Shown piece by piece: positions 23,334 to 39,724 of a DNA stretch of 64,000 bases. Positions within the stretch are counted from its first letter, which is position 1. Every line of letters starts with the position of its first letter. The notes beneath the pieces were generated by a model that made no database searches, was not told the DNA's origin, and saw only the letters and a program-made list of their open reading frames with translations. Source of the DNA: Verrucomicrobiia bacterium (GTDB lineage Bacteria > Desulfobacterota > Binatia > UBA9968); the NCBI GenBank assembly GCA_035495775.1, contig DATJFG010000187.1, positions 9,786 to 73,785 on the forward strand, written 5' to 3'. A program made the translations under genes and the position numbers.

Positions 23334-23432
23334 AGAAAATTTATAACGCAGCAGGTGACCTAAAAACAGCCGAAGATCCGACAGTTGACGGGCGGGACTG
23401 TTAGGTGGAGAATCTACCTGCTCGAGATATTC

Positions 23433-24404
23433 ATGGACAGCAAGCGACACATCTTTATCGAAGACCGCATCGAGTCGCTCGACGACCTCGACCGCTGTTT
23501 TAAGGAGCTGCTCGAGCCCAGAACGGACCGGAACGGGAACAAGCAGTGGATCTTCCGGGGCTACAAAAACAGCTCCTGGGATTTCGAAACCAAGCTGCAG
23601 CGCGCCATCTTCAAGTTCGGACTCGACGTCAATAAGCCGCTCGATAAAGAATCCAAGCGCGCGCTGTTGCACCCGACTTTGAAGGAGGGCCTCGACGCCG
23701 CCGACAAGACGCACAGCGTTTCTGCTATCGAGGGCGGGCTGCTTAGGCGCTTCAAGCGCCAGTGTCATCATTACACGATGGCAGTTCCCGGCGACGAGAA
23801 CATCATGGAATGGCTCGCGCTGATGCAGCACTACGGCGCGCCGACGCGCCTGCTCGATTGGACCTATTCTTTTTGGGTGGCTGTCTATTTTGCGGTCGAG
23901 GAGTCCGAAAAAGAATGCGTCGTATGGGCGCTCGATTCCCGCTGGATCCGCCAGCGGGTAAAGGCCAAGCTCAACGATGTCTCGCAGCTCATCGACAGCG
24001 AATACGGCGGGAATGACCCGAACGTGACTCGGCGCGAGACGTTCCGCGCGGCCTTTCAGTCCGGAAAGCGGTTCGTCTTCCCGATCAATCCCTATCGACT
24101 GAACGAGCGGCTGGTGCTGCAGCAGGGGCTCTTTCTCTGTCCCGGCGATATCTCATCCTCGTTCGAAGGCAACCTGGAGGCGCTCGCAGATGACAAGAAC
24201 GGCAAGAAGGATTTTTCCGGCAATCTGATAAAGTTCATCATCAAAAATGACCCGCGGCTCAGAAAGAACATCATGCAGCGTCTTCAGCGAATGAATTTAA
24301 ACCGCGCCACGCTCTTTCCCGGACTCGACGGATTCAGTCAGTCGCTCGAAATGCTCATGGTTTTCCCGCACATCCTCGTCCCCGACCCCGAATGGGAAGA
24401 TTGA
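23433..24404 (+). CDS. FRG domain protein
   Basis: WIFRG motif, LMQHYGAPTRLLDWT...VAVYFA, NERLVLQQGLF, LFPGLDG. Confidence 0.88.
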   Translation: MDSKRHIFIEDRIESLDDLDRCFKELLEPRTDRNGNKQWIFRGYKNSSWDFETKLQRAIFKFGLDVNKPLDKESKRALLHPTLKEGLDAADKTHSVSAIEGGLLRRFKRQCHHYTMAVPGDENIMEWLALMQHYGAPTRLLDWTYSFWVAVYFAVEESEKECVVWALDSRWIRQRVKAKLNDVSQLIDSEYGGNDPNVTRRETFRAAFQSGKRFVFPINPYRLNERLVLQQGLFLCPGDISSSFEGNLEALADDKNGKKDFSGNLIKFIIKNDPRLRKNIMQRLQRMNLNRATLFPGLDGFSQSLEMLMVFPHILVPDPEWED

Positions 24405-24495: not shown

Positions 24496-25380
24496 ATGAA
24501 CGGACTGCTTTACGACGTCTTGGCCAGCTCACGGCTGCTGCGCGACTTTAAGCGTGCGTTTCGCGATGCGACGCGACTGTCGCTCAAGCTCGTGCCGAAG
24601 AACGCCGCGACTCGATATATCACCGATGCGAGCAACACCTTCTGCGCCTTGATGGCGACCAGCGCCGCCGGCTGCGGCGTCTGTATCGAGGTCCGAAAAA
24701 AATTAGAGCAGCGGTTCGAGCGCAAACTCGCACCGCAAAAGGTATGCTGCTTCGCCGGTATGGTGGATGTCGCGGTCCCCGTCGTCATCGCTGGGAAGCA
24801 CGTCGCCACCCTTTTCGGCGGCCAGGTTTTCTGTCAAAAGCCGGGGACGCGCCAATTCGAGCGGCTTGGTCGTCAGCTGCGCCATTGGGGGATGAATACA
24901 GAGCTGCGGCTGGCGAAGCGGGCGTATTTTCAAACTCCCGTCGTCTCGCCGAAAGAATTCGGCGGCGCGGTGCGTCTGCTCACGGTTTTCGCTAACCAGC
25001 TCGCGGAGTCCGCCAACCGGTTGTTGCTGGCGAAGCATCGAGAAGAGCCAGAGGCCATTACAAGAGCAAAGACATTCGCGCGCGAGCGCGCCGGCGACCG
25101 TGTCACGCTGCGCGATGTGGCGGCACGCGCCCATTTGAGCAAGTATTATTTCTGCAAAACGTTTAAAAAGTCGACGGGAATGACTTTCACCGAATATCTC
25201 TCGCGCCTGCGCATCGAAAACGCAAAAAAGGAGCTCGACGATCCGCGCCTGGCCGTAACAGCAGTGTCGGATCGCGCAGGATTTAACTCCATCTCTCAGT
25301 TCAACCGGGCCTTTCGCCGCTACGAGGGTCGCTCGCCTACGGCTTACCGTGCCGCGCTGCGCCGTCGAGCGGCCGGCTGA
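24496..25380 (+). CDS. AraC-family regulator with PocR ligand-binding domain
   Basis: FC..C...C-FAG...AVPV...GGQV PocR pattern; C-terminal AraC HTH (YFCKTFKKSTGMTF, GFNSISQFNRAF). Confidence 0.88.
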   Translation: MNGLLYDVLASSRLLRDFKRAFRDATRLSLKLVPKNAATRYITDASNTFCALMATSAAGCGVCIEVRKKLEQRFERKLAPQKVCCFAGMVDVAVPVVIAGKHVATLFGGQVFCQKPGTRQFERLGRQLRHWGMNTELRLAKRAYFQTPVVSPKEFGGAVRLLTVFANQLAESANRLLLAKHREEPEAITRAKTFARERAGDRVTLRDVAARAHLSKYYFCKTFKKSTGMTFTEYLSRLRIENAKKELDDPRLAVTAVSDRAGFNSISQFNRAFRRYEGRSPTAYRAALRRRAAG

Positions 25381-25532: not shown

Positions 25533-26693
25533 ATGTTCACATTTCGTAGATGGAAAACATATTTGGGCGTGGCCGTCGCAGTGTCTCTACTGCTGGTACC
25601 GTTGATGTCATTGGCGGCCAGCGTCACGCCAGGCACGGTGACCGCGTGGGGTTATAACGGACTCGGCTGCCTGGGCGACGGCACGACAACGTCATCCTCA
25701 AAACCTGTCACCGTAGGCTTGCCTGACGGCGTGAGCGCCTTGACGATAACGGCGGGCTCCTTTCACAATCTCGCCATTACCACCGAGGGCGTATACACAT
25801 GGGGCGGTGAAGTGCTCACGCCGACGAAAATAGTGTTTCCGGCGGCCGTGACGGCGGTAAGCGACATCGCCGCAGGCGCCGGTCACAGCCTGGCGCTCAC
25901 GGACGACGGCGTCTATGTATGGGGCGGTAATAGTTCCGGGCAATTAGGTGACGGCACCACCATTTCGAAGCCTGATCCGGTGAAGATTTTCTTTCCATCA
26001 TCCGTCACGGCGATTTTTTCGGTCGCAGCCGGGTCCTACCATAGCCTCGCAGTCACCGACGATGGAGTTTACGCCTGGGGCAGCAACGGCGGCGCGCAGC
26101 TCGGCGACGGCACGCGCACCCAGCGCAACGCGCCGGTGAAGGTTGCTCTGCCGCCGGCGGTGACATCGGTGAGCGCCGTTTCCGGGGGTGGGTTTCACAG
26201 TCTCGCGATCACGAACGACGGCGTCTATGCCTGGGGCAACAACACGTTCGGTCAGCTCGGTAATGGCACGATCACCGACAGCGCGGTGCCGGTGAAAGTT
26301 GTCTTTGCCGTCGCAAAGAGGACAGCGCCGGTCAATGTCACCGCTATCGCGGCGGGTTTTTGGCACAGCCTCGCCATCGGAGATGGCAACATCTACGGCT
26401 GGGGCTACGGTAGCAATGGCGAGCTCGGCTCTCCCGCTGGCTCTACCAATGTCTTTCCAGTCAAGGCGGTGTTCCCGAAAAAGGTCGGCCCGATCGTTTT
26501 TACAGCGGTCTCGGCGGGAGACCTGCATAGCGTTGCGCTGTCGAATGTCGGCGAGGTCTACGCTTTTGGTAATAATTCCGAAGGGCAATTGGGGTCGAAC
26601 AGCAACGGGGGGCCGACGCCGACAAAAGTGCCCAACGAAGGCGGCGTCATCGACGTGAGCGCAGGGTATTACCACAGTCTTGCGCTCCACTGA
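25533..26693 (+). CDS. Secreted RCC1/BLIP-II repeat beta-propeller protein
   Basis: Signal peptide followed by about 7 repeats of V.AWG.N..GQLG.G...P...I.AG..HSLA. Confidence 0.9.
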   Translation: MFTFRRWKTYLGVAVAVSLLLVPLMSLAASVTPGTVTAWGYNGLGCLGDGTTTSSSKPVTVGLPDGVSALTITAGSFHNLAITTEGVYTWGGEVLTPTKIVFPAAVTAVSDIAAGAGHSLALTDDGVYVWGGNSSGQLGDGTTISKPDPVKIFFPSSVTAIFSVAAGSYHSLAVTDDGVYAWGSNGGAQLGDGTRTQRNAPVKVALPPAVTSVSAVSGGGFHSLAITNDGVYAWGNNTFGQLGNGTITDSAVPVKVVFAVAKRTAPVNVTAIAAGFWHSLAIGDGNIYGWGYGSNGELGSPAGSTNVFPVKAVFPKKVGPIVFTAVSAGDLHSVALSNVGEVYAFGNNSEGQLGSNSNGGPTPTKVPNEGGVIDVSAGYYHSLALH

Positions 26694-29726: not shown

Positions 29727-30830
29727 ATGACAGACCTCGACAACCTCGCGCCGTTTTACGAGCGCTGGATCAGAGAACAGGGCGTGCCCGTGGTCGAAGG
29801 CTACGGCGTCGATGTCACCGACATTCCCGTCAGTGACTGGGCGCGCAAAGGCGGCCGCGGCGCGTTCGTGCAGCTCCGCGGCATGGAGGGCGCTACCGGC
29901 ATGGAGGTCGTCGAGATCCCGGCGCGGCAGGCGCTCGAGCCGGAGCGGCATCTCTATGAAAAAGTTTTTTATGTCATCAGCGGCTTGGGCTCGACCGAAG
30001 TCTGGCAGAAGGGGCAGCCGAAGCGCTTCTTCGAGTGGGGCGCAGGCAGCCTCTTCGCGACGCCCCTCAACGCATCATACCGCCTGATCAACGGCGGGAC
30101 GCAGCCGGCGCGCCTGGCCGCCGTCACGAATGCGCCGATGATCATGGACATGTTCCACAACAATGACTTCATCTTCAACTGCGACTATCAGTTCACCGAC
30201 CGGTACAACGGCGAGGAGAACTATTTCGAAGCCTCGAACAAGCGGTACGTGGTCGGCCGGGGTAATTATTGGGACACGAACTTCATCGCCGATGTGTCGA
30301 CCGCCGCAATCGACGCGCACGAGTACAAGGGCAAGGGCGGCAGCTTCACGGGCTTCGAGATCGCTGGAAATTCGCTCGTCGGGCATCTCGTCGAATGGCC
30401 GGTAGGCATGTACCACAAGGCGCACTACCACGGCTCAGGAGCGGTGCTGTTAATTTTGAGATCGGAAGGTTACACGATCATGTGGCCGAACGAGCTCGGC
30501 ATCCATCCCTACGCTTCAGGCCACGGTGATCAGGTCGTCCGCGTCGACTGGAAGCCCGGCACCGCATTCGGCCCGCCGAGCGGCTGGTTCCATCAGCATT
30601 TCAACCTCGGCACGGCGCCGGCCCGGCAGCTTGCGCTACGTTACGGCAGCAAACGGCACAAGATGGGGTTTTACGTCGCGGCGCAAAAGCGCGACGGCGG
30701 TGTTTTTATCAGCGTCAAGGAAGGCGGCACGCTGATCGAGTATGAGGATGAGGATCCCGAGATTCGGCGGATTTTCGAGGCGGAGATCAAAAAGCGCGGC
30801 ATCGCAAACGAGATGCCGGCGGTAAGATAA
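29727..30830 (+). CDS. Bicupin protein (gentisate dioxygenase-like fold)
   Basis: Two cupin motifs: PERHLYE...GSLFATPLN and YHKAHYH...WFHQHFN. Confidence 0.78.
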   Translation: MTDLDNLAPFYERWIREQGVPVVEGYGVDVTDIPVSDWARKGGRGAFVQLRGMEGATGMEVVEIPARQALEPERHLYEKVFYVISGLGSTEVWQKGQPKRFFEWGAGSLFATPLNASYRLINGGTQPARLAAVTNAPMIMDMFHNNDFIFNCDYQFTDRYNGEENYFEASNKRYVVGRGNYWDTNFIADVSTAAIDAHEYKGKGGSFTGFEIAGNSLVGHLVEWPVGMYHKAHYHGSGAVLLILRSEGYTIMWPNELGIHPYASGHGDQVVRVDWKPGTAFGPPSGWFHQHFNLGTAPARQLALRYGSKRHKMGFYVAAQKRDGGVFISVKEGGTLIEYEDEDPEIRRIFEAEIKKRGIANEMPAVR

Positions 30831-30871
30831 TAATAGAGCGGTTTCGCCGACGCACTGACGCGCTTGCCCGG

Positions 30872-31570
30872 CTATTCGCCGAGAGCGGCGCGACCGATTC
30901 CTTCCATCAACAAGCGAAAAGCGAGCAGCGCTTCGCGTGCGGCTGCGACCGCTTTCGTGGCCGATTCTTCCGTCACCGCCTGCTCCGAAATAATCTTGAG
31001 CCCCGTTTCGACGTGCTTCTCGTCCTCTTCCATGTGGATCGTGCGCGATCGCAGCTGCTGCTGATTCAATCCGAGGTGCCGCCAGGCGCGGACGTCGTTG
31101 ATGATGATGACGCCCGCCTCGGCGCGGAGCGCCGGGTGATTTATACACTCAAGGCCGGTCGTTGCGGCGAGCCCCTCGACCCAGGAACGCGAGCGGCAGA
31201 TGCTGTCGAGGGCATCGATCGCGACGGCGGTCGACGCCAGCGGGGAAGTCCTTTCGATCTGTTCACGCGTCAGCCCCAAGGCTTCGCCCTGCCGCAATAA
31301 CAAATCGTAATGCGATCCCTGTCCATCGGGTCCGAGCTCTTCCTCGTACATATTGGCGACGAGAAACTTCCGCGCTTCCGACACGGGACAATTGGATGCC
31401 ACGGCCGCGAGCCAGCACGGAAAATTACGCGTGAAATGAGAGAACTGGCTGACGAAAACGCGGCCGCCATCCTTCGTCAGGACGCCCGGTTGAACGCGGT
31501 TGAACGTCGAAGGCTCGAGATAAATCGCTTGTAAAACAATATCTTTGATCTCTTTTTCCAAGCTATTCAT
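30872..31570 (-). CDS. Heme-oxygenase-like diiron protein (CADD/PqqC-like iron-containing redox enzyme)
   Basis: NMYEEELG....SH, GLE and HMEEDEKH give the E/H/E/H/D/H ligand set of HDO proteins. Confidence 0.78.
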   Translation of the reverse strand: MNSLEKEIKDIVLQAIYLEPSTFNRVQPGVLTKDGGRVFVSQFSHFTRNFPCWLAAVASNCPVSEARKFLVANMYEEELGPDGQGSHYDLLLRQGEALGLTREQIERTSPLASTAVAIDALDSICRSRSWVEGLAATTGLECINHPALRAEAGVIIINDVRAWRHLGLNQQQLRSRTIHMEEDEKHVETGLKIISEQAVTEESATKAVAAAREALLAFRLLMEGIGRAALGE

Positions 31571-32510
31571 TGAAAATGCTGCGCGCTTCCTTATTAGCCA
31601 CCGCTGCGCGAGGTAGCTTCCTCATGCGCACGGTCAGCCAATTCCATTGATCGGGATAGCGGCCGATTAGCGCTTCGAGATAACCGACGATCCGGCGCGT
31701 GTTGCCGCTTACATCCTCATACACGCTTCCGCCCCTGATTAAAAGCAACTCGGGCTCGATGATGAGACGGAGTTTGCCATTATAATTCCGTACCAGATAC
31801 ATCGGCACGAGGGCTGCGCGGGTTCGGAGCGCGAGGCTCACCGGCCCGCGCGGCGTGTGAACGCGCTGGCCGAATAGGGAGGTCTCGACTTTGCCCTTTT
31901 TAAGGTTATCTCCGAGGATGAAGACGATCTCGCCCCTTTTCAGCGACCGAACGATGCGAAGAACCGCCGAACCTCGCGGGCGCGAAGAAATGACGTGCTG
32001 GTAGAAAAACGGAAGCTGACGTTCGATAATCGCGGTCAGGCGCTCGTCCGCCGGCATGCGGAAGAGCGTAGAGACGCGGAACCCCTCCATGCCGAGGCGG
32101 GTTCCTACCAGCACGAAGTTGCCGATGTGCGCGCCGAGAGCAATTACGCCCTTGCCTTTGGCGCACGCGGCTCTGAGATTCTCGAGGCCTTCGATGGTTA
32201 CCTTCCGGCGCGCGCGCTCCGGATCGGCGAGCTGGAGAAAACAATCGATCAGCGCGCGGGTGAAATTCTCCTGAACGCCGCGTGCAAGCCCGGCCTTCGT
32301 CGCGGCGGAATACGAGCGACCGAAGGCCGCAGTCAAGTTCTTCACGATTTGACGGCGCGGGATGATGACGCGCACGATCAGCCGAAGCGTCGGCGCTGCG
32401 ATGCGGCGGAAAACATCGGCCGGTAAAGAGCGAACAAGGAAATTGTAAACAAGAAACAGGACTTCGATCGCGCGATACGTGAGCCGATCGACGCTGCGGC
32501 CGCGCCTCAT
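31563..32510 (-). CDS. LpxL/PatA-like lysophospholipid acyltransferase (variant dyad)
   Basis: IEGLENL...GKGVIAL.AHIGNF, ILGD, LFG...TPRGP..LA, PDQWNWL..R. Confidence 0.82.
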   Translation of the reverse strand: MRRGRSVDRLTYRAIEVLFLVYNFLVRSLPADVFRRIAAPTLRLIVRVIIPRRQIVKNLTAAFGRSYSAATKAGLARGVQENFTRALIDCFLQLADPERARRKVTIEGLENLRAACAKGKGVIALGAHIGNFVLVGTRLGMEGFRVSTLFRMPADERLTAIIERQLPFFYQHVISSRPRGSAVLRIVRSLKRGEIVFILGDNLKKGKVETSLFGQRVHTPRGPVSLALRTRAALVPMYLVRNYNGKLRLIIEPELLLIRGGSVYEDVSGNTRRIVGYLEALIGRYPDQWNWLTVRMRKLPRAAVANKEARSIFNE

Positions 32511-32513
32511 TTC

Positions 32514-33674
32514 TTAGGCTTCATCGCGATAGGCGTGGCCGCGCCAATCACGGACGATCTTTTGAATCTCGGCCGACCAGGCCGATTGCAACGGATCGTC
32601 CTTCGGCCAGTCCCGCATGCAGGTTTCTCCGTCCCAATGAGAAATTGACGCTTCGGGCGGGCAGAAAACCGAACGCGCGGGAAAGCCGCGGCGGCGCGTG
32701 TCGGTGAGAATCTCCGCCGCCCTGGTGATGGAGAGAGCGATCGCGAGATCATCCAGTGCAACCGGCAGGATCGGCTTGTCGCGATGCGTGATGGCGGTGA
32801 CATGATAGACAGGACGCGGGGCGCGCGCGGCGGCGGTAAAACTGACGTCGCCGCCGAAGGGGCCTTCTTTCTGCCTTTCGTAAGGCGGAATGAATCCTTC
32901 GATCACGATCTCCGCGGTCGCCGGCACCTCGAGATCGACCGTCTCACACTTGACGAGCTCCAGCGGCGCTCTGCGGATCGCGCCGACGATCTCCGCCTCG
33001 TTCATATCGGGCGGCAGTCGTGTCGCGGCGACCCACGGCGTGACCGGCTCGGTGCCGATCGCGACGGCGAACTCCATCGAGCGGCCGCGCGCCTCATACT
33101 TCGCGTAGTATTGCTCGGCGAATTTTTGCTCCGGTAGCAGCAGCCCGCCCATCGTCTTCCTGCCATGGATCATCAAACGGTCGAGACCCCACCGGCGCGT
33201 ATCGGTATCGGGATCTTTGCCGATGTTCGCGTGCCACGTGCCGATATAAGGACCGCCGTCGTCGCGGTGGAACACCGGCGCTGGGATACTCTGAAGATCG
33301 ATGTCGGCGCCGAGCAGTATGTTCTCCTTGCAAGGTCCGCTTTTCACCAGCACAGGTCGGATCGGGTTTGCTATGCGGCAGAGATACTCCTCGACTATTT
33401 GCGCAGGGGTCGACTCCGGAGGCATATCCATCCCGACCGCGAAGCGAAGAAAGGGAGCATTTCTGCGCCGGCTCAAGCCGATCGGCGCGCCAAAAAGCCG
33501 CCATTCGGGAAAACCGCGAACGTTCGTAAAAAAGGGCGCCGGCGCGCGGAGTTCGTACGAGCGCCGCATGACGGCGGCGACCTCGAAAACCGGCTGCACC
33601 TCATCGTTGACCCTTTGTATTTCCCCCTCGTACGCGAGGCGAGCCAAATAATCACGCAAATCTGAAAAAGGCAT
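32514..33674 (-). CDS. Shortened, degenerate UbiD-family protein (Fdc1/HudA-like)
   Basis: DLRDYL, RRSYELRAPAPFF, DGGPYIGTW, VKCETVDLEVPATAEIVIEG; EGPFGG replaces EGPFGE; 386 aa versus 481 and about 530 aa for the other two paralogs. Confidence 0.8.
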   Translation of the reverse strand: MPFSDLRDYLARLAYEGEIQRVNDEVQPVFEVAAVMRRSYELRAPAPFFTNVRGFPEWRLFGAPIGLSRRRNAPFLRFAVGMDMPPESTPAQIVEEYLCRIANPIRPVLVKSGPCKENILLGADIDLQSIPAPVFHRDDGGPYIGTWHANIGKDPDTDTRRWGLDRLMIHGRKTMGGLLLPEQKFAEQYYAKYEARGRSMEFAVAIGTEPVTPWVAATRLPPDMNEAEIVGAIRRAPLELVKCETVDLEVPATAEIVIEGFIPPYERQKEGPFGGDVSFTAAARAPRPVYHVTAITHRDKPILPVALDDLAIALSITRAAEILTDTRRRGFPARSVFCPPEASISHWDGETCMRDWPKDDPLQSAWSAEIQKIVRDWRGHAYRDEA

Positions 33675-33699
33675 CGAACCTCCTTGGAGAATGCATGAT

Positions 33700-33733
33700 T
33701 TATATAATTACTTTTTGTATTGATAGTCAATAC
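33700..33733 (-). promoter_or_regulatory. AT-rich promoter with a palindromic operator overlapping the -35 box
   Basis: GTATTGA-tag-TCAATAC (33717-33733) contains TTGACT on the minus strand, followed by an AT-rich -10 region. Confidence 0.5.
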
Positions 33734-33790
33734 GTTAATTAATTTCGGCCATGAAAACGTAGGGGAATTTGAGCGGCCGTACTCCGGTCC

Positions 33791-35236
33791 CTACTTAAGG
33801 ATGTCTTTCCATTTCTCGCTGTATTTTCGCTTGAGCTCGGGCGAGAGGGCGTTGACCGGCGGGTAACGGTCTTTCCAGGCATAGGGACGGCAGGCATTTA
33901 GGATCGCACGGCTGTTGGTCGTGTCGCCGGCATCGCGCTTGTCGGGGGTGAGCGTCGGATCGAGCGAAGTGGACCAACAGTTGTCGATGACCGTGATCGC
34001 GGTTTTGGGATCGCACCGTGTGGAAACCGCCCACAGCACCTCGCCCATGTCGGTCGGATCTATATCCTCGTCAACCACCACGACGAAACGGCCGTGATAG
34101 TTTCCAGCGCGACATGCGAGCGCGGCCATCGCGGCCTGCTGCGCATGGCCATGGTAGCGCTGCTTGAGCGATACGACGATGAACGGTGCCCCGCCTCCCG
34201 GCGCCGAGCCGCCGACGAAAGACCAGACGCCGCGGATATCCGGCACGTCGGCCTTCTCCAAATAATTCCAGATGGCCGCCGCGCCGATGGGTATGCCGAA
34301 TGTGAGCGACGGCGGCTTGATCGGTGGCGCGCCGGCGATAATCGGGTCATTTCGATAATAGAGGGCTTTGACGCGGATCACCGGCTCTGTCCGTGCGCCA
34401 TGCGCATAGTATCCGGGCCATTCGCCGAACGGCCCCTCGACGCGGCTCTCCTCGGACGGCGGCGGCACCTCGCCTTCGATAGCGATTTCCGCCGCGGCGG
34501 GAATCGGCAAACCGGTTCGCTCGCCCTTAATGATGTCGACCGGCGCGCCGCGGAGCGCGCCCGCGTAGTCGAACTCCGAGACGCCGTAGGGCACCGATTG
34601 ACCGGCCGCGAGCCAGGTGAGCGGCTCCTGTCCGAAAGTGATCGCCACGGGGCACGATTTCCCCAGCGCCCAATATTTCTCGCGCATGATTCGCGCGTGG
34701 TGGCCGGGGGAAATGTAGAGGCCGAGGCGGTCGCGGTCATGCACCTGGACGCGGTAGATGCCGACGTTCACCCAAGGATCATCGGGATCGGTCGTGATGA
34801 CACAGCAGGCGGTGCCGAGATAGCGCCCGCCGTCGAGCTCATGCCAGCGCGGCGCGGGAAAAACAGTCATGTCGATGTTCGCACCGCTTTTCGTGTTCTC
34901 CAGCACCGGCCCCTCGGCGACGGTGCGCGGAGGAATCGGCTTTAAATTTTGCAGCGACTTTCGCCAGCGGAGCACCATCTCGGTCCTCGGCAAATCCGGC
35001 GGCATGCCCGAAGCGAGCGCGATGCGCCGCGGATGATTCACGAGATTCGATGCTACGCGGTACGACGGCGGGTGGCCGGGTATCTTGTCGAAGAGGAGAA
35101 GGGGATGGCTCTCGCGGTTGGCGAAGAGCTCAGTCAGCGCGCCGATCTCGAGATCCCAATCGGCGCCGTGGATATCTTCCACGTCGCCGAGCTTGCGCGC
35201 GGCATCGATAAATTCGCGGAGATCGTTGAACGGCAT
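33791..35236 (-). CDS. UbiD-family prFMN-dependent (de)carboxylase
   Basis: DGGRYLGT, NVGIYRVQ (conserved Arg), EGPFGEWPGYY, VVVDEDIDPTD, WAVSTRCDP. Confidence 0.9.
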   Translation of the reverse strand: MPFNDLREFIDAARKLGDVEDIHGADWDLEIGALTELFANRESHPLLLFDKIPGHPPSYRVASNLVNHPRRIALASGMPPDLPRTEMVLRWRKSLQNLKPIPPRTVAEGPVLENTKSGANIDMTVFPAPRWHELDGGRYLGTACCVITTDPDDPWVNVGIYRVQVHDRDRLGLYISPGHHARIMREKYWALGKSCPVAITFGQEPLTWLAAGQSVPYGVSEFDYAGALRGAPVDIIKGERTGLPIPAAAEIAIEGEVPPPSEESRVEGPFGEWPGYYAHGARTEPVIRVKALYYRNDPIIAGAPPIKPPSLTFGIPIGAAAIWNYLEKADVPDIRGVWSFVGGSAPGGGAPFIVVSLKQRYHGHAQQAAMAALACRAGNYHGRFVVVVDEDIDPTDMGEVLWAVSTRCDPKTAITVIDNCWSTSLDPTLTPDKRDAGDTTNSRAILNACRPYAWKDRYPPVNALSPELKRKYSEKWKDILK

Positions 35237-35255
35237 CGCGTTTTTCGACCAAAAA

Positions 35256-36047
35256 TTAAAAGTGCCCCGCTTCTTTGGCGTGCGTGTAAATACCGTCGTG
35301 GAACAGCGCGACGTAATCGGCGTTGGTGAGGCAGCAATATTGCGGTGACCAGCCGGGGCGCGTCCAGACGAGCCCGTCTTGCAGCAGGGTCTGGAAGATC
35401 AAGCGCGTCACTTGGCCGTGCGCCATGAGTCCTTCCTCGTGCTCCTCGAGGTCGGCCTCTTCATGCACCTGGAAGTAATGCAGGTCGGCGTCTTTGAATT
35501 TATATTTTTCGAGCAGCGCCCGGCGCCACTCACGCGCCCAGTGGCCGAACATCTCCTCGTTGAGCGAGCGCGCCCACCATTCGATCAAGGCGCCTTCATA
35601 GACCAGCCCGCGCGCGAATTCCGTCAGCGCACGGCATTCGGCGAAGACCTCACAATTGACCATCTCCTCGCGGGTCACGCCGAAGGTTTTACCCTGCTCG
35701 ATCAGGACTTGGATGTGGCCGGGGATTTTCGGATTCACGAGCTCGTCGCTGATCTTCCCGACGAACGGGCCGAGCAGCTCCGGGTGGCGGCTGAAAAATC
35801 CCATGTGGCGCTGATAAATGATCAGATGAAAATTGTTGATCTCGACCGGATAGCTATACCAGTGCGTCCAAAAAAGTTTGATTGTCTCGAGCGGCAGCCT
35901 CCCGGCGGTCAAATCGCGCATGAAATCACCCTGGAAGATTTTCTTCTGCCAGCGGGCGTACATTTTCTTGACGATGTCGTCGGTGAACGCCGTCGCTTCA
36001 TCGGCGCTCATCTTTCTGCCCCAGTCAAGGCCGCCGTTCGCGCTCAT
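35256..36047 (-). CDS. Heme-oxygenase-like diiron protein (TenA/PqqC-like fold)
   Basis: FMRDLTAGRLP N-terminus, DELVNPKIPGH, NEE, YFQVHEEAD...H putative metal ligands. Confidence 0.68.
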   Translation of the reverse strand: MSANGGLDWGRKMSADEATAFTDDIVKKMYARWQKKIFQGDFMRDLTAGRLPLETIKLFWTHWYSYPVEINNFHLIIYQRHMGFFSRHPELLGPFVGKISDELVNPKIPGHIQVLIEQGKTFGVTREEMVNCEVFAECRALTEFARGLVYEGALIEWWARSLNEEMFGHWAREWRRALLEKYKFKDADLHYFQVHEEADLEEHEEGLMAHGQVTRLIFQTLLQDGLVWTRPGWSPQYCCLTNADYVALFHDGIYTHAKEAGHF

Positions 36048-36063
36048 GCTTCGATCTTCGCCG

Positions 36064-36990
36064 TTATCCAAGCGGCAGCGACACACCGGTCTCAATCAGC
36101 CCTTGGCGCAACTCCTGGCGCTCCTTGTCGGTGAACGGCGCGCATTCCCAGCGCGGGAACCGCGGCACTGGCAGCCCGCGCATGCGCATGATCTCGCCGA
36201 AAACGACTCGGCCGTGCTCCGGCAGATAGCGCCCGACGACGTTCATGATCGCCGCGAGTTGATCGTGCGCTTTGTGCGCTTCCTCGAGCTTGCCGTGCTT
36301 CAAGCCGAGAAACATCTTGACACAGAGCTCGGGGAAGGGCGTCGACGGCGGATGGATCGCGCCGCGCACGCCGAGCGAGTAGGCGCCGTAGAGCGAGAAG
36401 ATCGAGCCGGGGAAGATGCCGACCGACTTCGGCAGCTTGAAGGCGTAGCCGAGCAATTGGTCGAAGGGGAGGAACGAAACTTTGATGCCCGCGAGCGGAT
36501 TGGGCGCGATCGCTTCGATCACCTTCAGCACCTTCGGCGGCGTGATATGGACGTGCGTCGTCTCGGTGTTGTCGTAGATGAACATCGGCGTGCCCGGCAC
36601 CGATTTGGCGATGGCTTTGTAATGAAGATAAACCTCAGCGTCGTTATGCGGATAATAGTAAGGAGGCACGACCGCGATCGCATCGACGCCGAGACCGACC
36701 GCGTGGCGCGCGAGGTCGATCGAAGAGTAAGTATTCGCCGTGCCTATGTGGAGCACGATCGGGACTTTCCCGGCAACGCGGCGCACGAGTCGCTCGGCGA
36801 CGCGCTTGCGCTCGTCGATCTCCATTACCATGCCTTGCCCGTGCGTACCGAGAGCGAAGAAGCCTTGGACACCCGCATTGACGTAAAAATCGGTCAGTGC
36901 GTCGGTTCCAGCTTCATCGACCGCGCCGTCTTCTTTGAAAGCCGTCGGCATTGGAATGAGAATGCCTTCGATCTGCCCATTGCTCGCCAT
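36064..36990 (-). CDS. DapA/NanA-family class I aldolase/lyase
   Basis: GILIPMPTAF, GTHGQG, VVPPYY, catalytic Tyr (IYDN) and Schiff-base Lys (GIKVS). Confidence 0.85.
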   Translation of the reverse strand: MASNGQIEGILIPMPTAFKEDGAVDEAGTDALTDFYVNAGVQGFFALGTHGQGMVMEIDERKRVAERLVRRVAGKVPIVLHIGTANTYSSIDLARHAVGLGVDAIAVVPPYYYPHNDAEVYLHYKAIAKSVPGTPMFIYDNTETTHVHITPPKVLKVIEAIAPNPLAGIKVSFLPFDQLLGYAFKLPKSVGIFPGSIFSLYGAYSLGVRGAIHPPSTPFPELCVKMFLGLKHGKLEEAHKAHDQLAAIMNVVGRYLPEHGRVVFGEIMRMRGLPVPRFPRWECAPFTDKERQELRQGLIETGVSLPLG

Positions 36991-37071
36991 AATTCACCTC
37001 CGAAAAACGGTCGGAAAGAATAAACTGCTTTCTCTATATGAACTCGCAGCGGCGCTTGTCAAGGTTGCGGG

Positions 37072-38013
37072 TTACTTCTTCGCTTGAATCTCTTTCATAA
37101 ATCGCCAGTCGAAGATCTTCGACTCGGGAATGTCGTCTTTGATCTTGAACTGCTCGCGGGCGATGCGGATTTCCGTATCGACGGTCTTTTTAGCGACCAA
37201 ACCATCCTCGTTCAGCGAGCGCAGCGCGTACTGGTAGATCTTCTCCACCGAGTCGCCGCTGATCTTCAGATAATCGCGCATGATCGCGAGCGTCTCTGGT
37301 TTATTCGGTCGCATGAAACGTACGCCCTTCAACGTTGCGCGGATCATGCGCGTGATCTGCTCGGGATTTTTCTGGATTTTATCCTGCGCCACGCCGAGAC
37401 CGCCGAGGCGGATATTGACGGCATCGCCGAGATAGAGCAAATCGACGAAACCCATTTGCTCGGTTTTTTGAATGTAGGCGAGATCGACCGGCGACGCGTC
37501 GGCGCTGCCGACCGCGAGTGCGCTGACGCGCTCGCTGGAGCCCCCGAGGGCCAGGAACGTGACATCTTTGTCGGCATTCATGCCCGCCTGGATCAACGCT
37601 TCGCGTACGGCGAGGTGCGGCACCGAATTCAAGCCGCTCACGGCGATGCGCTTGCCCTTCAAGTCGGCAAGAGTTTTTATGCCGGGCCGCGCGATCAACA
37701 TGTGCAGCGGCTTGTCGAGCCATCCCATCACGGTCTTGAGCGGCAACCCTTGAATGCTCGCACTGGAGACGATTCCGGAAACGGTCGAGTAATCGAGCTC
37801 GCCCGCGAGCAGCGCCGCGACCTGGATGCCGGTGCGGACAGCGATCTTCCGCACCTCCAGACCCTCTTCCTGGTAGAAGCCTTTGCGTTTGGCGATCTCC
37901 GTCGGCAGCTCGTAGAGGCCGACGGTGGAGATGCCGAGGGTGACAATTTCGCCGCGCGCCGTCACGCAGGTCACAGTTAAAAGAAGCAAGGCGGAAAAAG
38001 CGATCGTTTTCAT
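37072..38013 (-). CDS. ABC transporter substrate-binding protein (NMT1/THI5/SsuA-like)
   Basis: Signal peptide MKTIAFSALLLL; KGFYQEEGLEV, DLKGKRIAVS, KDVTFLALG. Confidence 0.85.
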   Translation of the reverse strand: MKTIAFSALLLLTVTCVTARGEIVTLGISTVGLYELPTEIAKRKGFYQEEGLEVRKIAVRTGIQVAALLAGELDYSTVSGIVSSASIQGLPLKTVMGWLDKPLHMLIARPGIKTLADLKGKRIAVSGLNSVPHLAVREALIQAGMNADKDVTFLALGGSSERVSALAVGSADASPVDLAYIQKTEQMGFVDLLYLGDAVNIRLGGLGVAQDKIQKNPEQITRMIRATLKGVRFMRPNKPETLAIMRDYLKISGDSVEKIYQYALRSLNEDGLVAKKTVDTEIRIAREQFKIKDDIPESKIFDWRFMKEIQAKK

Positions 38014-38040
38014 GCATTCTCCCGTCGAGAGACTCACAAG

Positions 38041-38106
38041 CTTCTAACCTCACGCGGTGCTTCTGTCAACGCGCTGCTTGACCGAAAAATCCCGCAGGTG
38101 TAGCGT
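38041..38106. promoter_or_regulatory. Back-to-back divergent sigma70-like promoters
   Basis: Plus strand: TTGACC (38078)-N17-TAGCGT (38101). Minus strand: TTGACA (38069-38064)-N17-TAGAAG. Confidence 0.5.
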
Positions 38107-38131
38107 CCTCAACGATAGAACGGAGGGAGTG

Positions 38132-39724
38132 ATGTCGTACTACCGCGATCTGCACGAGTGGCTGCACATGCTCGAAGAGAAGGGATACCTCAATCGCGTT
38201 TCTCGGCGCATCAACAAAGACACCGAGATGCACCCGCTGGTGCGTTTGCAATTTCGCGGGCTGCCGGAGCGGGAGCGCAAGGGCTGGTTCTTTGACAATA
38301 TCGTCGACGTGCGCGGAAAATCCTACGACATTCCCGTCGCGCTCGCCGTCATGGCGCCGAGTCGTGCCGTGTACGCGCTCGGCATGGGCGTCGAGTCGTC
38401 GCAAGAAATTCCTGCGAAATGGGCTGCGGCGCAGACGCGGCCGGTCGAGCCGCGGATCGTCTCCTCGGCTCCATGCCAGGAGATCGCCTTCACAGGTGCG
38501 GAGTTGGAAAACGCCGGCGGCCTCGGCATGCTGCCGGTGCCGATCTCGACGCCGGGCTTCGACAGCGGCCCGTTTTTCAGCTCCGGGCATTGGGTCACCA
38601 AAGACCCTGAGACGGGCGATTACAACTTCGGCACCTATCGCGCGCAGGTGAAGAGCCCGAGCCGCCTCGGCCTGTTCGCCTTCGCCTACCAGGATGTCAG
38701 CCAGCACTGGAACAAGGCGCGCGCGCGCAAGATGCCGCTCGAAGCGGCCGTCGTCGTCGGCTGCACGCCGAATCTCTCTTACTGCTCGACCGCGCGCATG
38801 CCGCCGGGCGCGGAATATGCCATCGCCGGCGCGATCGCCGGCGAGCCGCTCGAGCTCGTCCGCTGCAAGACGGTCGATCTACTGGTTCCGGCGCGAAGCG
38901 AGATCGTCATCGAAGGAATTATTCCCACCGACGAGGTCGAGCCCGAAGGCCCCTTCGGGGAGTTCACCGGCTACATGGCGCACCGGGCGCTGGACAAATT
39001 CATGAACGTGACGGCGATCACGCGGCGCCGCGATGCGATCTTTCAGGCGTTCTTGAGCCAGTTCCCGCCCAGCGAGTCGAGCATCCTGCGCGGTGTCGGG
39101 CTCGAAGGGCTTATCTATAAGATCCTCACTGTCGATAAGAAAATAAAAGGCATCCTCGAAGTGGCGCTTCCCGACGCGGCCGGAAGCCACGGCGTCGGCA
39201 TCATTCGGATGAATCGCGAGGCGGTCGGCGATCCGCTGGCGGTGCTCAACATCGTCGCCGACATGCCGCGCGCCGCGCCGAAGATTTTGATCGCCGTGGA
39301 TGAAGATATCGACGCGCGCGACGCCGAGGCGGTGCAATGGGCGATGGCCTATCGCATGCAGCCGCATCGCGATATTCGGATTCGCGACATCAAAGTCTCG
39401 ACGGCGCTCGACTTTTCTCTGGCGCCGCCTTCTTCGCGCCAAGACGCCGAGGCGCAGAGAGGCTCGGCAATCTTGATCGACGCGACCCGGAAGTGGGAGT
39501 ATCCGCCGGTGTCTTTGCCGCGGCGCGAGTTCATGGAAAAGGCGCAGGCGATCTGGCGCGAGCTTGAACTTCCGCCGCTCGAGCTCAAGAAGCCGTGGTT
39601 CGGCTATAACCTCGGCAGCTGGAGCGAGGAAGACCAGGCCGACGCCGAGCGTGCGCTGCGCGGCGAGCACTACGAGACGGGCGAAGCCCGGCGCGCGCAA
39701 CGTGGCCGCCCGCAGAAAGATTGA
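38132..39724 (+). CDS. UbiD-family prFMN-dependent (de)carboxylase
   Basis: YRDLHEWL, NFGTYRAQ, VRCKTVDLLVPARSEIVIEG, EGPFGEFTGY, VDEDID; ATG follows GGAGGG. Confidence 0.9.
   Translation: MSYYRDLHEWLHMLEEKGYLNRVSRRINKDTEMHPLVRLQFRGLPERERKGWFFDNIVDVRGKSYDIPVALAVMAPSRAVYALGMGVESSQEIPAKWAAAQTRPVEPRIVSSAPCQEIAFTGAELENAGGLGMLPVPISTPGFDSGPFFSSGHWVTKDPETGDYNFGTYRAQVKSPSRLGLFAFAYQDVSQHWNKARARKMPLEAAVVVGCTPNLSYCSTARMPPGAEYAIAGAIAGEPLELVRCKTVDLLVPARSEIVIEGIIPTDEVEPEGPFGEFTGYMAHRALDKFMNVTAITRRRDAIFQAFLSQFPPSESSILRGVGLEGLIYKILTVDKKIKGILEVALPDAAGSHGVGIIRMNREAVGDPLAVLNIVADMPRAAPKILIAVDEDIDARDAEAVQWAMAYRMQPHRDIRIRDIKVSTALDFSLAPPSSRQDAEAQRGSAILIDATRKWEYPPVSLPRREFMEKAQAIWRELELPPLELKKPWFGYNLGSWSEEDQADAERALRGEHYETGEARRAQRGRPQKD

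Follow-up and report, generated by a model that had tools for sequence, protein, structure and literature searches.

Three enzyme families supply the closest described relatives of a three-gene unit that we analyzed in a 64-kb stretch of DNA (the window) from a Candidatus Binatia metagenome-assembled genome (MAG; 4.5 Mb in 191 contigs, 98.5% complete), a stretch that was also matched in soil and rhizosphere DNA sequencing runs. The unit encodes a truncated UbiD-family protein (UbiD2, in a deletion form termed S1), a membrane acyltransferase of the LpxL/PatA family, and a CADD-like dimetal oxidase (HDO), and to our knowledge no system with a UbiD protein, an LpxL/PatA-type acyltransferase and an HDO together has been described. 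The nearest described UbiD proteins, Fdc1 and TtnD (PDB entries 4za4 and 6da6), are prenylated flavin mononucleotide (prFMN) decarboxylases, for which we follow the domain layout and names used in PMC10850782. According to PMC5818171, Fdc1 needs an acid at both position 277 and position 282, with E282Q inactive and E282D left with about 7% of kcat. For the acyltransferases (PatA and LpxL/LpxM; 5f2t, 5kn7), PMC8519569 describes His126 of PatA as the general base, tuned by Glu200. CtCADD, like NePabS a self-sacrificing synthase of para-aminobenzoic acid (pABA) in the HDO family (1rcw, 8va9), forms pABA by cleaving its own Tyr27 and Lys152, and the Y27F substitution abolishes this reaction (PMC9522330, PMC13108848). 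About a dozen members of the HDO superfamily are characterized, mostly with fatty-acid or amino-acid substrates, by the account in PMC13108848.

Comparison across relatives favors, by what we judge to be a little better than an even chance, a mosaic, lineage-restricted operon lying within an aromatic-acid catabolic island, and not an obligate three-part system. A preliminary description of the locus had proposed a repurposed three-gene module. The tight unit, the disabled UbiD and the HDO that looks competent to bind metal all stood up; the integrity of the module did not, because relatives carry each partial combination of the three genes, which points to a loose operon rather than an obligate machine. 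As a three-gene "system" the idea therefore fails comparison across relatives. In the reading that we favor, one conserved promoter would drive three translationally coupled, and presumably co-transcribed, genes. The HDO would be the stable member, the last gene after a block encoding a solute-binding protein, a DHDPS-like protein, a second HDO-like protein (HDO2) and a PhdA-like full-length UbiD (UbiDfull), and would most likely serve the (hetero)aromatic-acid catabolic island, with the acyltransferase and the truncated UbiD as dispensable passengers on the same transcript.

The physical layout was as first described. Three bases separate the TAA stop of UbiD2 from the ATG of the acyltransferase, the 3' end of the acyltransferase gene overlaps the HDO gene, from its ATG, by 8 bp, and all three reading frames are open (Table 1). 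Pfam upheld the family assignments (UbiD, acyltransferase, CADD-like HDO), and no NCBIfam equivalog cut-off was met by any of the three proteins. The arrangement, when sought in other genomes, proved not to be unique to the window, and the ratio of nonsynonymous to synonymous divergence (dN/dS) was 0.07 to 0.18 for all three genes. On the minus strand the genes run in the order NMT1-like, DHDPS-like, HDO2, UbiDfull, a 116-bp spacer, UbiD2, acyltransferase and HDO.

Every partial version of this row occurs among relatives (W is the window's own locus, L-numbers are loci of relatives, and P-numbers are protein clusters). Locus L005 is without UbiD2 and its promoter, the acyltransferase starting 45 bp past the UbiDfull stop and being followed by the HDO. 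At L079 (identical to L149), full-length UbiD2 is followed after 94 bp by an intact HDO, with no acyltransferase, and at L148 and L150 the HDO comes straight after UbiDfull, with neither UbiD2 nor the acyltransferase. At L010 to L015 the acyltransferase lies beside the bicupin gene, with no HDO. What stays constant throughout the genus is DHDPS-HDO2-UbiDfull and, after it, the HDO, convergent with the bicupin gene; the tandem order UbiDfull-UbiD2 was seen at eight loci (L001, L003, L006, L007, L008, L024, L071, L079). The preliminary description had set normal orthologues and unlinked genes against a module, and both were found in part, in that UbiD2 of relatives can be full length with its catalytic Glu and the genes can be unlinked.

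Distribution within the order (121 genomes sampled) likewise separates the genes. The HDO occurs in 15 of the 121, namely every one of the 11 other genomes in its genus, both of those in g7 and 1 of 2 in g17, where the tally rests on the unpublished genome G074, and it was not found in the 24 other genera sampled. Orthologues of the acyltransferase (threshold E ≤ 1e-70) occur in 56 of the 121, in 38 of the 58 high-quality genomes and, within the genus, in 8 of the 11 genomes besides the window's own; G092, which is also unpublished, and G074 both enter these counts. This patchiness rules out a core housekeeping lipid A enzyme, and the acyltransferase is an accessory, patchily distributed paralogue.

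The two halves of the row also have separate histories, as seen from a step in both identity and synonymous divergence (dS) at the UbiDfull/UbiD2 spacer. Between L006 and L003, identity is 92.8% over DHDPS-HDO2-UbiDfull and 82 to 84% over UbiD2-acyltransferase-HDO, with dS of 0.18 to 0.24 in the upstream half versus 0.53 to 0.95 in the three-gene half (recomputed for this pair with exact coordinates). The step suggests that Binatia lineages have exchanged half of the cluster by recombination.

The spacer itself carries a conserved element, and the claim that the unit has its own AT-rich promoter with a palindrome was confirmed to this extent. The 116 bp are AT-rich and contain TTGACTATCAATAC...TTATAT, which includes the near-palindrome TTGA-CTA-TCAA, and AAGGAGG lies 5 bp before the UbiD2 ATG. 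The motif derived from it, TTGACTNTNNATANNNNAANNNNTTA, has one match in the 64-kb window, and 0 of 100 shuffles had any match. It recurs upstream of UbiD2 in eight further loci (L001, L003, L006, L007, L008, L024, L071, L079). When seven spacers were aligned, the flanks did not align, unlike the ribosome-binding region and the block TTGACT.T..ATA....AA....TTA; the motif is the only well-conserved block. A generic promoter scan missed the conserved site, and Rfam returned nothing at E values up to 0.1 over positions 30700 to 38200.

The HDO, which we take as the stable member, scores 83.5 bits against PF14518 and stays well short of the equivalogs TIGR04305 (72.7 bits versus a cut-off of 200) and TIGR02111 (PqqC; 34.8 versus 240). 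The latter score led us to reject an identity as PqqC, which the source labels give as "PQQ biosynthesis protein C". All six iron ligands claimed for it are present: E77, H87, E141, H179, D183 and H186 align with the CtCADD ligands and do not vary among the 32 orthologues aligned. The AlphaFold2 (AF2) model has a mean predicted local distance difference test (pLDDT) of 91, and Foldseek matched it to SSO2700 (4lqx, uncharacterized), then to CtCADD, PqqC and BesC, with UndA and PolF lower; in the ESM Atlas, the only matches were generic clusters labelled "iron-containing redox enzyme/TENA". By sequence, CtCADD is the closest functionally characterized relative with a solved structure (1.9e-10), and the HDO shares with CtCADD and NePabS the seven-helix heme-oxygenase-like fold (query-normalized TM-score [TMq] of about 0.75) and the 3-His/3-carboxylate ligands. 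It differs in that SSO2700 is its closest structure and in the two residues that CtCADD consumes: Tyr27 is replaced by F23 (Phe in at least 90% of the 32 orthologues), and Lys152 by A152, in a column that is less certain for the gaps nearby. With Phe and Ala at these positions, the HDO is not expected to be a self-sacrificing pABA synthase. Its ligand set instead suggests an O2-activating dimetal enzyme with a 3-His/3-carboxylate site and a small-molecule substrate.

The acyltransferase matches PF03279 over nearly its full length (109.2 bits versus a cut-off of 22.3; profile positions 12 to 294 of 295), and a hydrophobic N-terminal segment typical of the family can be read from its sequence. 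Seventeen NCBIfam models matched, all far below cut-off (best 85.5 bits versus 273), and no LpxL, LpxM, LpxP or PatA equivalog assignment was reached. Like PatA, LpxL and LpxM, the protein has the general-base His and an Asp at the place of PatA Glu200; unlike them, it has Val133 at the +5 position of the HX4D/E motif, which reads A-H128-I-G-N-F-V133 with no acid there, and it lies outside an lpx cluster. In a motif survey (from which L023 and L025, with fewer than 180 residues matched, and L063 were left out), 24 of 24 orthologue rows (48 to 100% identical) read AH[IL]GNF[VI], 29 of 29 rows of the paralogue group at 33 to 40% identity read AH.G.F, and 8 of 8 outgroup rows read the classical AH.GNWE. 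A downstream Asp (Asp201, in ILGD) is present in every row; in a 16-sequence profile alignment it lines up with Glu200 of PatA and the Asp of LpxM, and Val133 with the Glu of LpxM HFGTWE.

The preliminary description had counted the acyltransferase as one of two members that lost a catalytic acid. The substitutions are real in both proteins (Gly275 in UbiD2, Val133 in the acyltransferase), but the acid is missing across the surveyed Binatia orthologues and paralogues alike, so that in the acyltransferase its absence is a lineage trait and no mark of repurposing. With His128 and Asp201 kept, the enzyme is probably active through a PatA-like His128/Asp201 pair, and it would be an accessory membrane enzyme of the LpxL/PatA family.

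The genome holds three paralogues of this acyltransferase including the window copy; the others, which lack the acid too, adjoin ispG/proS and ileS, both housekeeping surroundings, and none lies in an lpx cluster. One of them (C87, in an ileS/MFS/DyP context) lies about 0.9 kb from a UbiD gene. We rejected this as a sign of a general acyltransferase-UbiD link, since with about 40 UbiD matches in the genome it is probably a coincidence. Between these two genes on C87 is a conserved gene (L070, 7044-7880, plus strand) that by eye resembles class II aldolase/adducin proteins and is overlapped by a longer antisense open reading frame (ORF). Distant Binatia orthologues of the acyltransferase (L020, 7518-8384; L021, 1676-2563) stand beside genes for a TANGO2-family protein, a MacB/FtsX-type ATP-binding cassette (ABC) pair and a TonB-like protein, surroundings that may hint at a function in the envelope or with lipids.

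UbiD2 fails three of the four defining features of the UbiD family. It matches PF20695 (56 bits) and PF01977 (203 bits), both above cut-off, and has no match to PF20696 (UbiD_C, the oligomerization domain). Compared with full-length orthologues (484 to 492 aa, 63 to 67% identical), it is without about 100 residues of that domain through an in-frame deletion, and it retains the prFMN-binding and N-terminal domains along with both the central and the C-terminal helices. Its best PDB sequence matches are TtnD (6da6, 5e-65) and then Fdc1 entries (about 1e-52 to 1e-57), and by Foldseek the best are Fdc1, HudA and TtnD (TMq about 0.8). In the AF2 model (pLDDT 81), values fall below 50 at the deletion junction (residues 341 to 363, disordered) and at the former Glu loop (278 to 280).

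Residues were mapped by transferring a T. atroviride Fdc alignment to A. niger Fdc1 numbering, and the spacings of 5, 18, 42, 44 and 5 fit. UbiD2 shares with Fdc1 and TtnD the equivalents of R173 (R166), E233 (E226) and E277 (E270); it differs from them by Arg161 at N168, Lys184 at H191 and Gly275 at E282, and by new residues at Asp165 and Lys184. The Glu-Arg-Glu/Asp network (Fdc1 E277, R173, E282) is incomplete, with E270 and R166 present and Gly at 275. Fdc1 N168, H191 and E233 we take to be the metal ligands that hold the prFMN phosphate, and of these three positions only E226 is kept, R161 and K184 replacing the other two. UbiD2 is thus predicted to be a pseudoenzyme; at the very least, it should no longer decarboxylate by the known UbiD mechanism, and we infer a role in ligand binding or as a partner protein. 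It would derive from an Fdc1/TtnD-like prFMN decarboxylase that lost its oligomerization domain and catalytic Glu and gained Asp165 and Lys184 beside the old active site.

These features are shared by a clade. The S1 set comprises the window copy and 12 protein clusters (72 to 99% identity), all of 378 to 389 aa, and was compared with 14 full-length orthologues; the deletion of about 100 residues is shared by the S1 sequences aligned. At position 275, S1 sequences have Gly (6), Asp (4) or Ala (3), versus the catalytic Glu in 13 of the 14 full-length proteins. Lys184 and Asp165 are each found in 13/13 S1 sequences, versus Asn and Tyr, respectively, in 11/14 full-length ones, and position 161 varies in S1 (R8, L2, H2, Q1) where the full-length set has Asn in 11/14. 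The carboxylate-binding Arg, R166, is kept in 13/13. Full-length orthologues are further found singly, in unrelated surroundings (L073 to L077, L081), and one of their clusters, P0070, is labelled Verrucomicrobia.

Selection on these genes was estimated by the Nei-Gojobori method, leaving out as frame artefacts (dN >2) the comparisons of HDO2 with L007, L006, L008 and L003, of the acyltransferase with L008, and of the UbiDs with L003. Among the S1 loci L001, L007 and L024, UbiD2 gave dN/dS of 0.086 (L001-L007, dS 0.38), 0.091 and 0.098 (dS 0.72); the window copy against the same three gave 0.10 to 0.11 at dS 1.1 to 1.3, where pairs are near saturation (dS >1). The full-length pair L006-L008 gave 0.081, the acyltransferase 0.15 to 0.18, the HDO 0.07 to 0.09, and the neighboring UbiDfull 0.045 to 0.083 (0.045 to 0.052 in the same species pairs as S1, for which the HDO gave 0.07 to 0.08). 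The low S1 values, near 0.09, mark UbiD2 as a pseudoenzyme under constraint rather than a gene in decay.

Several points weigh against the mosaic-operon reading. Purifying selection on a catalytically dead UbiD implies a function that this reading leaves unnamed, and the invariance of D165 and K184 would point to neofunctionalization, not passenger status. Some S1 members might even keep weak chemistry, given Asp at position 275 in 4 of the 13 and the residual activity of Fdc1 E282D. Tight translational coupling is conserved, as would be expected of cooperating proteins: in all 6 relatives whose start is clear, the UbiD2 and acyltransferase genes abut or overlap by 4 bp, and those for the acyltransferase and the HDO abut or overlap in 7 of 8, the eighth having a gap of 11 bp. 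The acyltransferase lies directly 5' of the HDO in 12 of the 15 HDO-bearing loci (12 of 12 in which both are adjacent). The losses that we compared come from related MAGs and metagenome contigs, and are few events and not independent samples; the g17 count of the HDO depends on one unpublished genome. Finally, the catabolic role proposed for the island is read from family membership alone.

These same junctions and the conserved promoter are what an integrated tailoring module would predict, in which the three proteins share one pathway: after oxidation by the HDO, an acyl or aryl group would pass via the acyltransferase to an envelope lipid, the UbiD remnant serving to bind or present the acid substrate. 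Purifying selection on all three genes, the retention of R166 (Fdc1 R173) throughout S1, the mostly fatty-acid or amino-acid substrates that PMC13108848 gives for characterized HDOs, and the presence in the genome of LpxC and WaaA, so that lipid A acceptors exist, fit this picture too. We nevertheless consider it unlikely. Every gene is found without the others in close relatives, the HDO accompanies all 11 other genus genomes and the acyltransferase only 8, and distant acyltransferase orthologues sit in the unrelated envelope-type contexts described above. Moreover, donors of LpxL/PatA enzymes are thioesters and not free acids (for PatA, PMC8519569), and the window has no linked lipid gene.

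A narrower and equally tentative proposal concerns UbiD2 and the HDO. Here the S1 protein would be a neofunctionalized, monomeric derivative of the prFMN domain whose remodeled, Glu-less pocket (D165, K184, R166) binds a flavin or else an acid (aromatic or unsaturated) and passes it to the co-translated HDO. If true, a substrate-presenting pseudoenzyme paired with an HDO would be a pairing undescribed for either family.

It is also conceivable, if rather doubtful, that the truncated UbiD serves UbiDfull (the PhdA-like enzyme) or the HDO as a non-catalytic subunit, docking by its C-terminal helix. Phenylphosphate carboxylase offers a precedent with two UbiD-like subunits, and its alpha and beta subunits are the second-best NCBIfam matches of the remnant and of UbiDfull, respectively, at scores far below cut-off. 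The UbiDfull-UbiD2 tandem is conserved in the eight loci listed above, an HDO paralogue adjoins a UbiD paralogue elsewhere in the genome (C6), and the retained tail (residues 346 to 386) has a dN/dS of 0.13; the C-terminal helix contacts other subunits in UbiD enzymes, as PMC10850782 describes. Against a subunit role, the part deleted is the canonical UbiD interface domain, and both UbiDfull and the HDO are intact in genomes without UbiD2, so that neither needs it. When the acyltransferase, the HDO and the truncated UbiD were folded together, with the UbiD as partner, the score was not specific relative to a control with a substitute for the acyltransferase, a result that weighs neither way on binding.

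Slow decay of UbiD2 as a still-open pseudogene, in an operon that would otherwise consist of the acyltransferase and the HDO, draws on the instability of the orthogroup, but is very improbable: the four S1 loci and the 12 S1 clusters, which reach down to 72% identity, are free of stops and frameshifts, all 13 S1 sequences have D165 and K184, and the S1 dN/dS (0.086 to 0.098 over dS 0.38 to 0.72) is on a par with that of the full-length pair. The instability itself is plain. Across the 17 loci in which the UbiD2 slot could be judged, the gene is full length in six (L002, partial and inferred from ORF length, L006, L008, L072, L079, L121), carries the S1 deletion in four (W, L001, L007, L024) and other in-frame deletions in three (L003, L010, L071), combines a deletion with a frameshift in one (L078, which may be an assembly error), and is absent from three (L005, L148, L150). 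The non-S1 forms differ among themselves: P0082, P0083 and P0085 (385 to 389 aa) have different deletion boundaries and keep the Glu, P0087 and L071 encode 362 aa and P0165 363 aa, L003 (P0097) is missing residues 138 to 196, and L010 (P0088), like P0113, is missing the Glu loop. The orthogroup thus records at least four independent in-frame lesions other than S1 and several complete losses.

Table 1 Positions of the three-gene unit and surrounding features in the window
Feature	Position	Strand	Match or remark
Truncated UbiD-family protein (S1 form, UbiD2), 386 aa	33674->32514	(-)	PF20695 + PF01977 without PF20696; stop TAA
LpxL/PatA-family membrane acyltransferase, 315 aa	32510->31563	(-)	PF03279; ATG at 32510
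CADD-like dimetal oxidase (HDO), 232 aa	31570->30872	(-)	PF14518/PF03070; ATG at 31570
Conserved promoter-/operator-like motif TTGACT-N-TCAATA ... TTA	33705..33730	(-)	In spacer before UbiD2
Full-length UbiD decarboxylase (UbiDfull), upstream block	33791..35236	(-)	All three Pfam UbiD domains
HDO2, second divergent HDO-like protein	35256..36095	(-)	Weak PF14518 match, E 7e-4, below cut-off
DHDPS-family class I aldolase-like protein, first enzyme gene of upstream block	36064..36990	(-)	PF00701, 154 bits
NMT1/THI5-like periplasmic solute-binding protein, head of minus-strand row	37072..38037	(-)	PF09084, 82 bits
Third UbiD-family gene, 555 aa, UbiD + UbiD_C domains, long N-terminus	38057..39724	(+)	Divergent from NMT1-like gene
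Bicupin protein, convergent with HDO, separate transcript	29727..30830	(+)	Cupin_2
Candidate terminator-like hairpin, 54 bp past HDO stop	30797..30818	(-)	Pattern scan

Upstream of the unit, the NMT1/THI5-like gene is kept at the head of the row in L001, L005 and L007, and the DHDPS-like protein is 86 to 94% identical in relatives and below every NCBIfam equivalog cut-off. HDO2 lies beside UbiDfull in every cluster locus and has faint PDB matches to TenA-like and CADD entries; its true start is probably near 36047, as orthologues align only from residue 14 to 17 on. By eye it shows a CADD-like ligand pattern (DE...GH, NEE, HEEAD..EEH), with one additional residue in the last motif. UbiDfull aligns over residues 3 to 479 with 7pda (E 5.7e-133) and has the EGPFGE motif; PMC10850782 identifies this entry as PhdA, a phenazine-1-carboxylate decarboxylase. 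PhdA is therefore a relative of the neighboring UbiDfull and not of the three-gene unit. About a dozen UbiDfull paralogues are found in the genome at 44 to 48% identity, and together with the PhdA match they hint at decarboxylation of N-heteroaromatic or polycyclic acids.

On the other side, the bicupin gene, whose stop is 41 bp from that of the HDO, is 79 to 89% identical and convergent in relatives, and its product had no PDB sequence match; a gene for a cytidylate-kinase-like/BON protein likewise converges on the unit from the bicupin side. The hairpin past the HDO stop is weak evidence of a terminator, as terminator-like sites are not enriched in the window (6 found versus 8.4 expected from shuffles). 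Just outside the cluster lie plus-strand genes for an FRG-domain protein (23385-24404), a regulator of the PocR-sensor/AraC type (24496-25380) and an RCC1-repeat protein (25533-26693), and the regulator could control the cluster.

Searching the genome with the window genes (tblastn) gave about 40 UbiD matches, 19 for the bicupin, 11 and 7 for the two HDO types (the 7 of HDO2 including itself, with 6 others), more than 150 per NMT1-like query and only 3 for the acyltransferase. The UbiD, bicupin and NMT1/THI5-like families are strongly expanded for a 4.5-Mb genome and are frequently close together (on C158, C146, C83 and C84, for example). A UbiX candidate is encoded elsewhere in the genome, as are the LpxC and WaaA homologues.

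What is new in this locus is the constrained, domain-deleted, Glu-less UbiD clade, for which no prior description was found in a limited literature search (Binatia UbiD; inactive or paralogous prFMN UbiD). With at least 13 sequences, 72 to 100% identical to the window copy, the S1 clade would be a natural experiment for UbiD enzymology. To the HDO field the locus adds a CADD-like yet clearly non-sacrificial member that is tied to a decarboxylase-rich catabolic island. For annotation, the locus carries two warnings: this HDO is mislabelled as "PqqC", and the absence of the HX4D acid in Binatia LpxL-family proteins need not mean inactivity.

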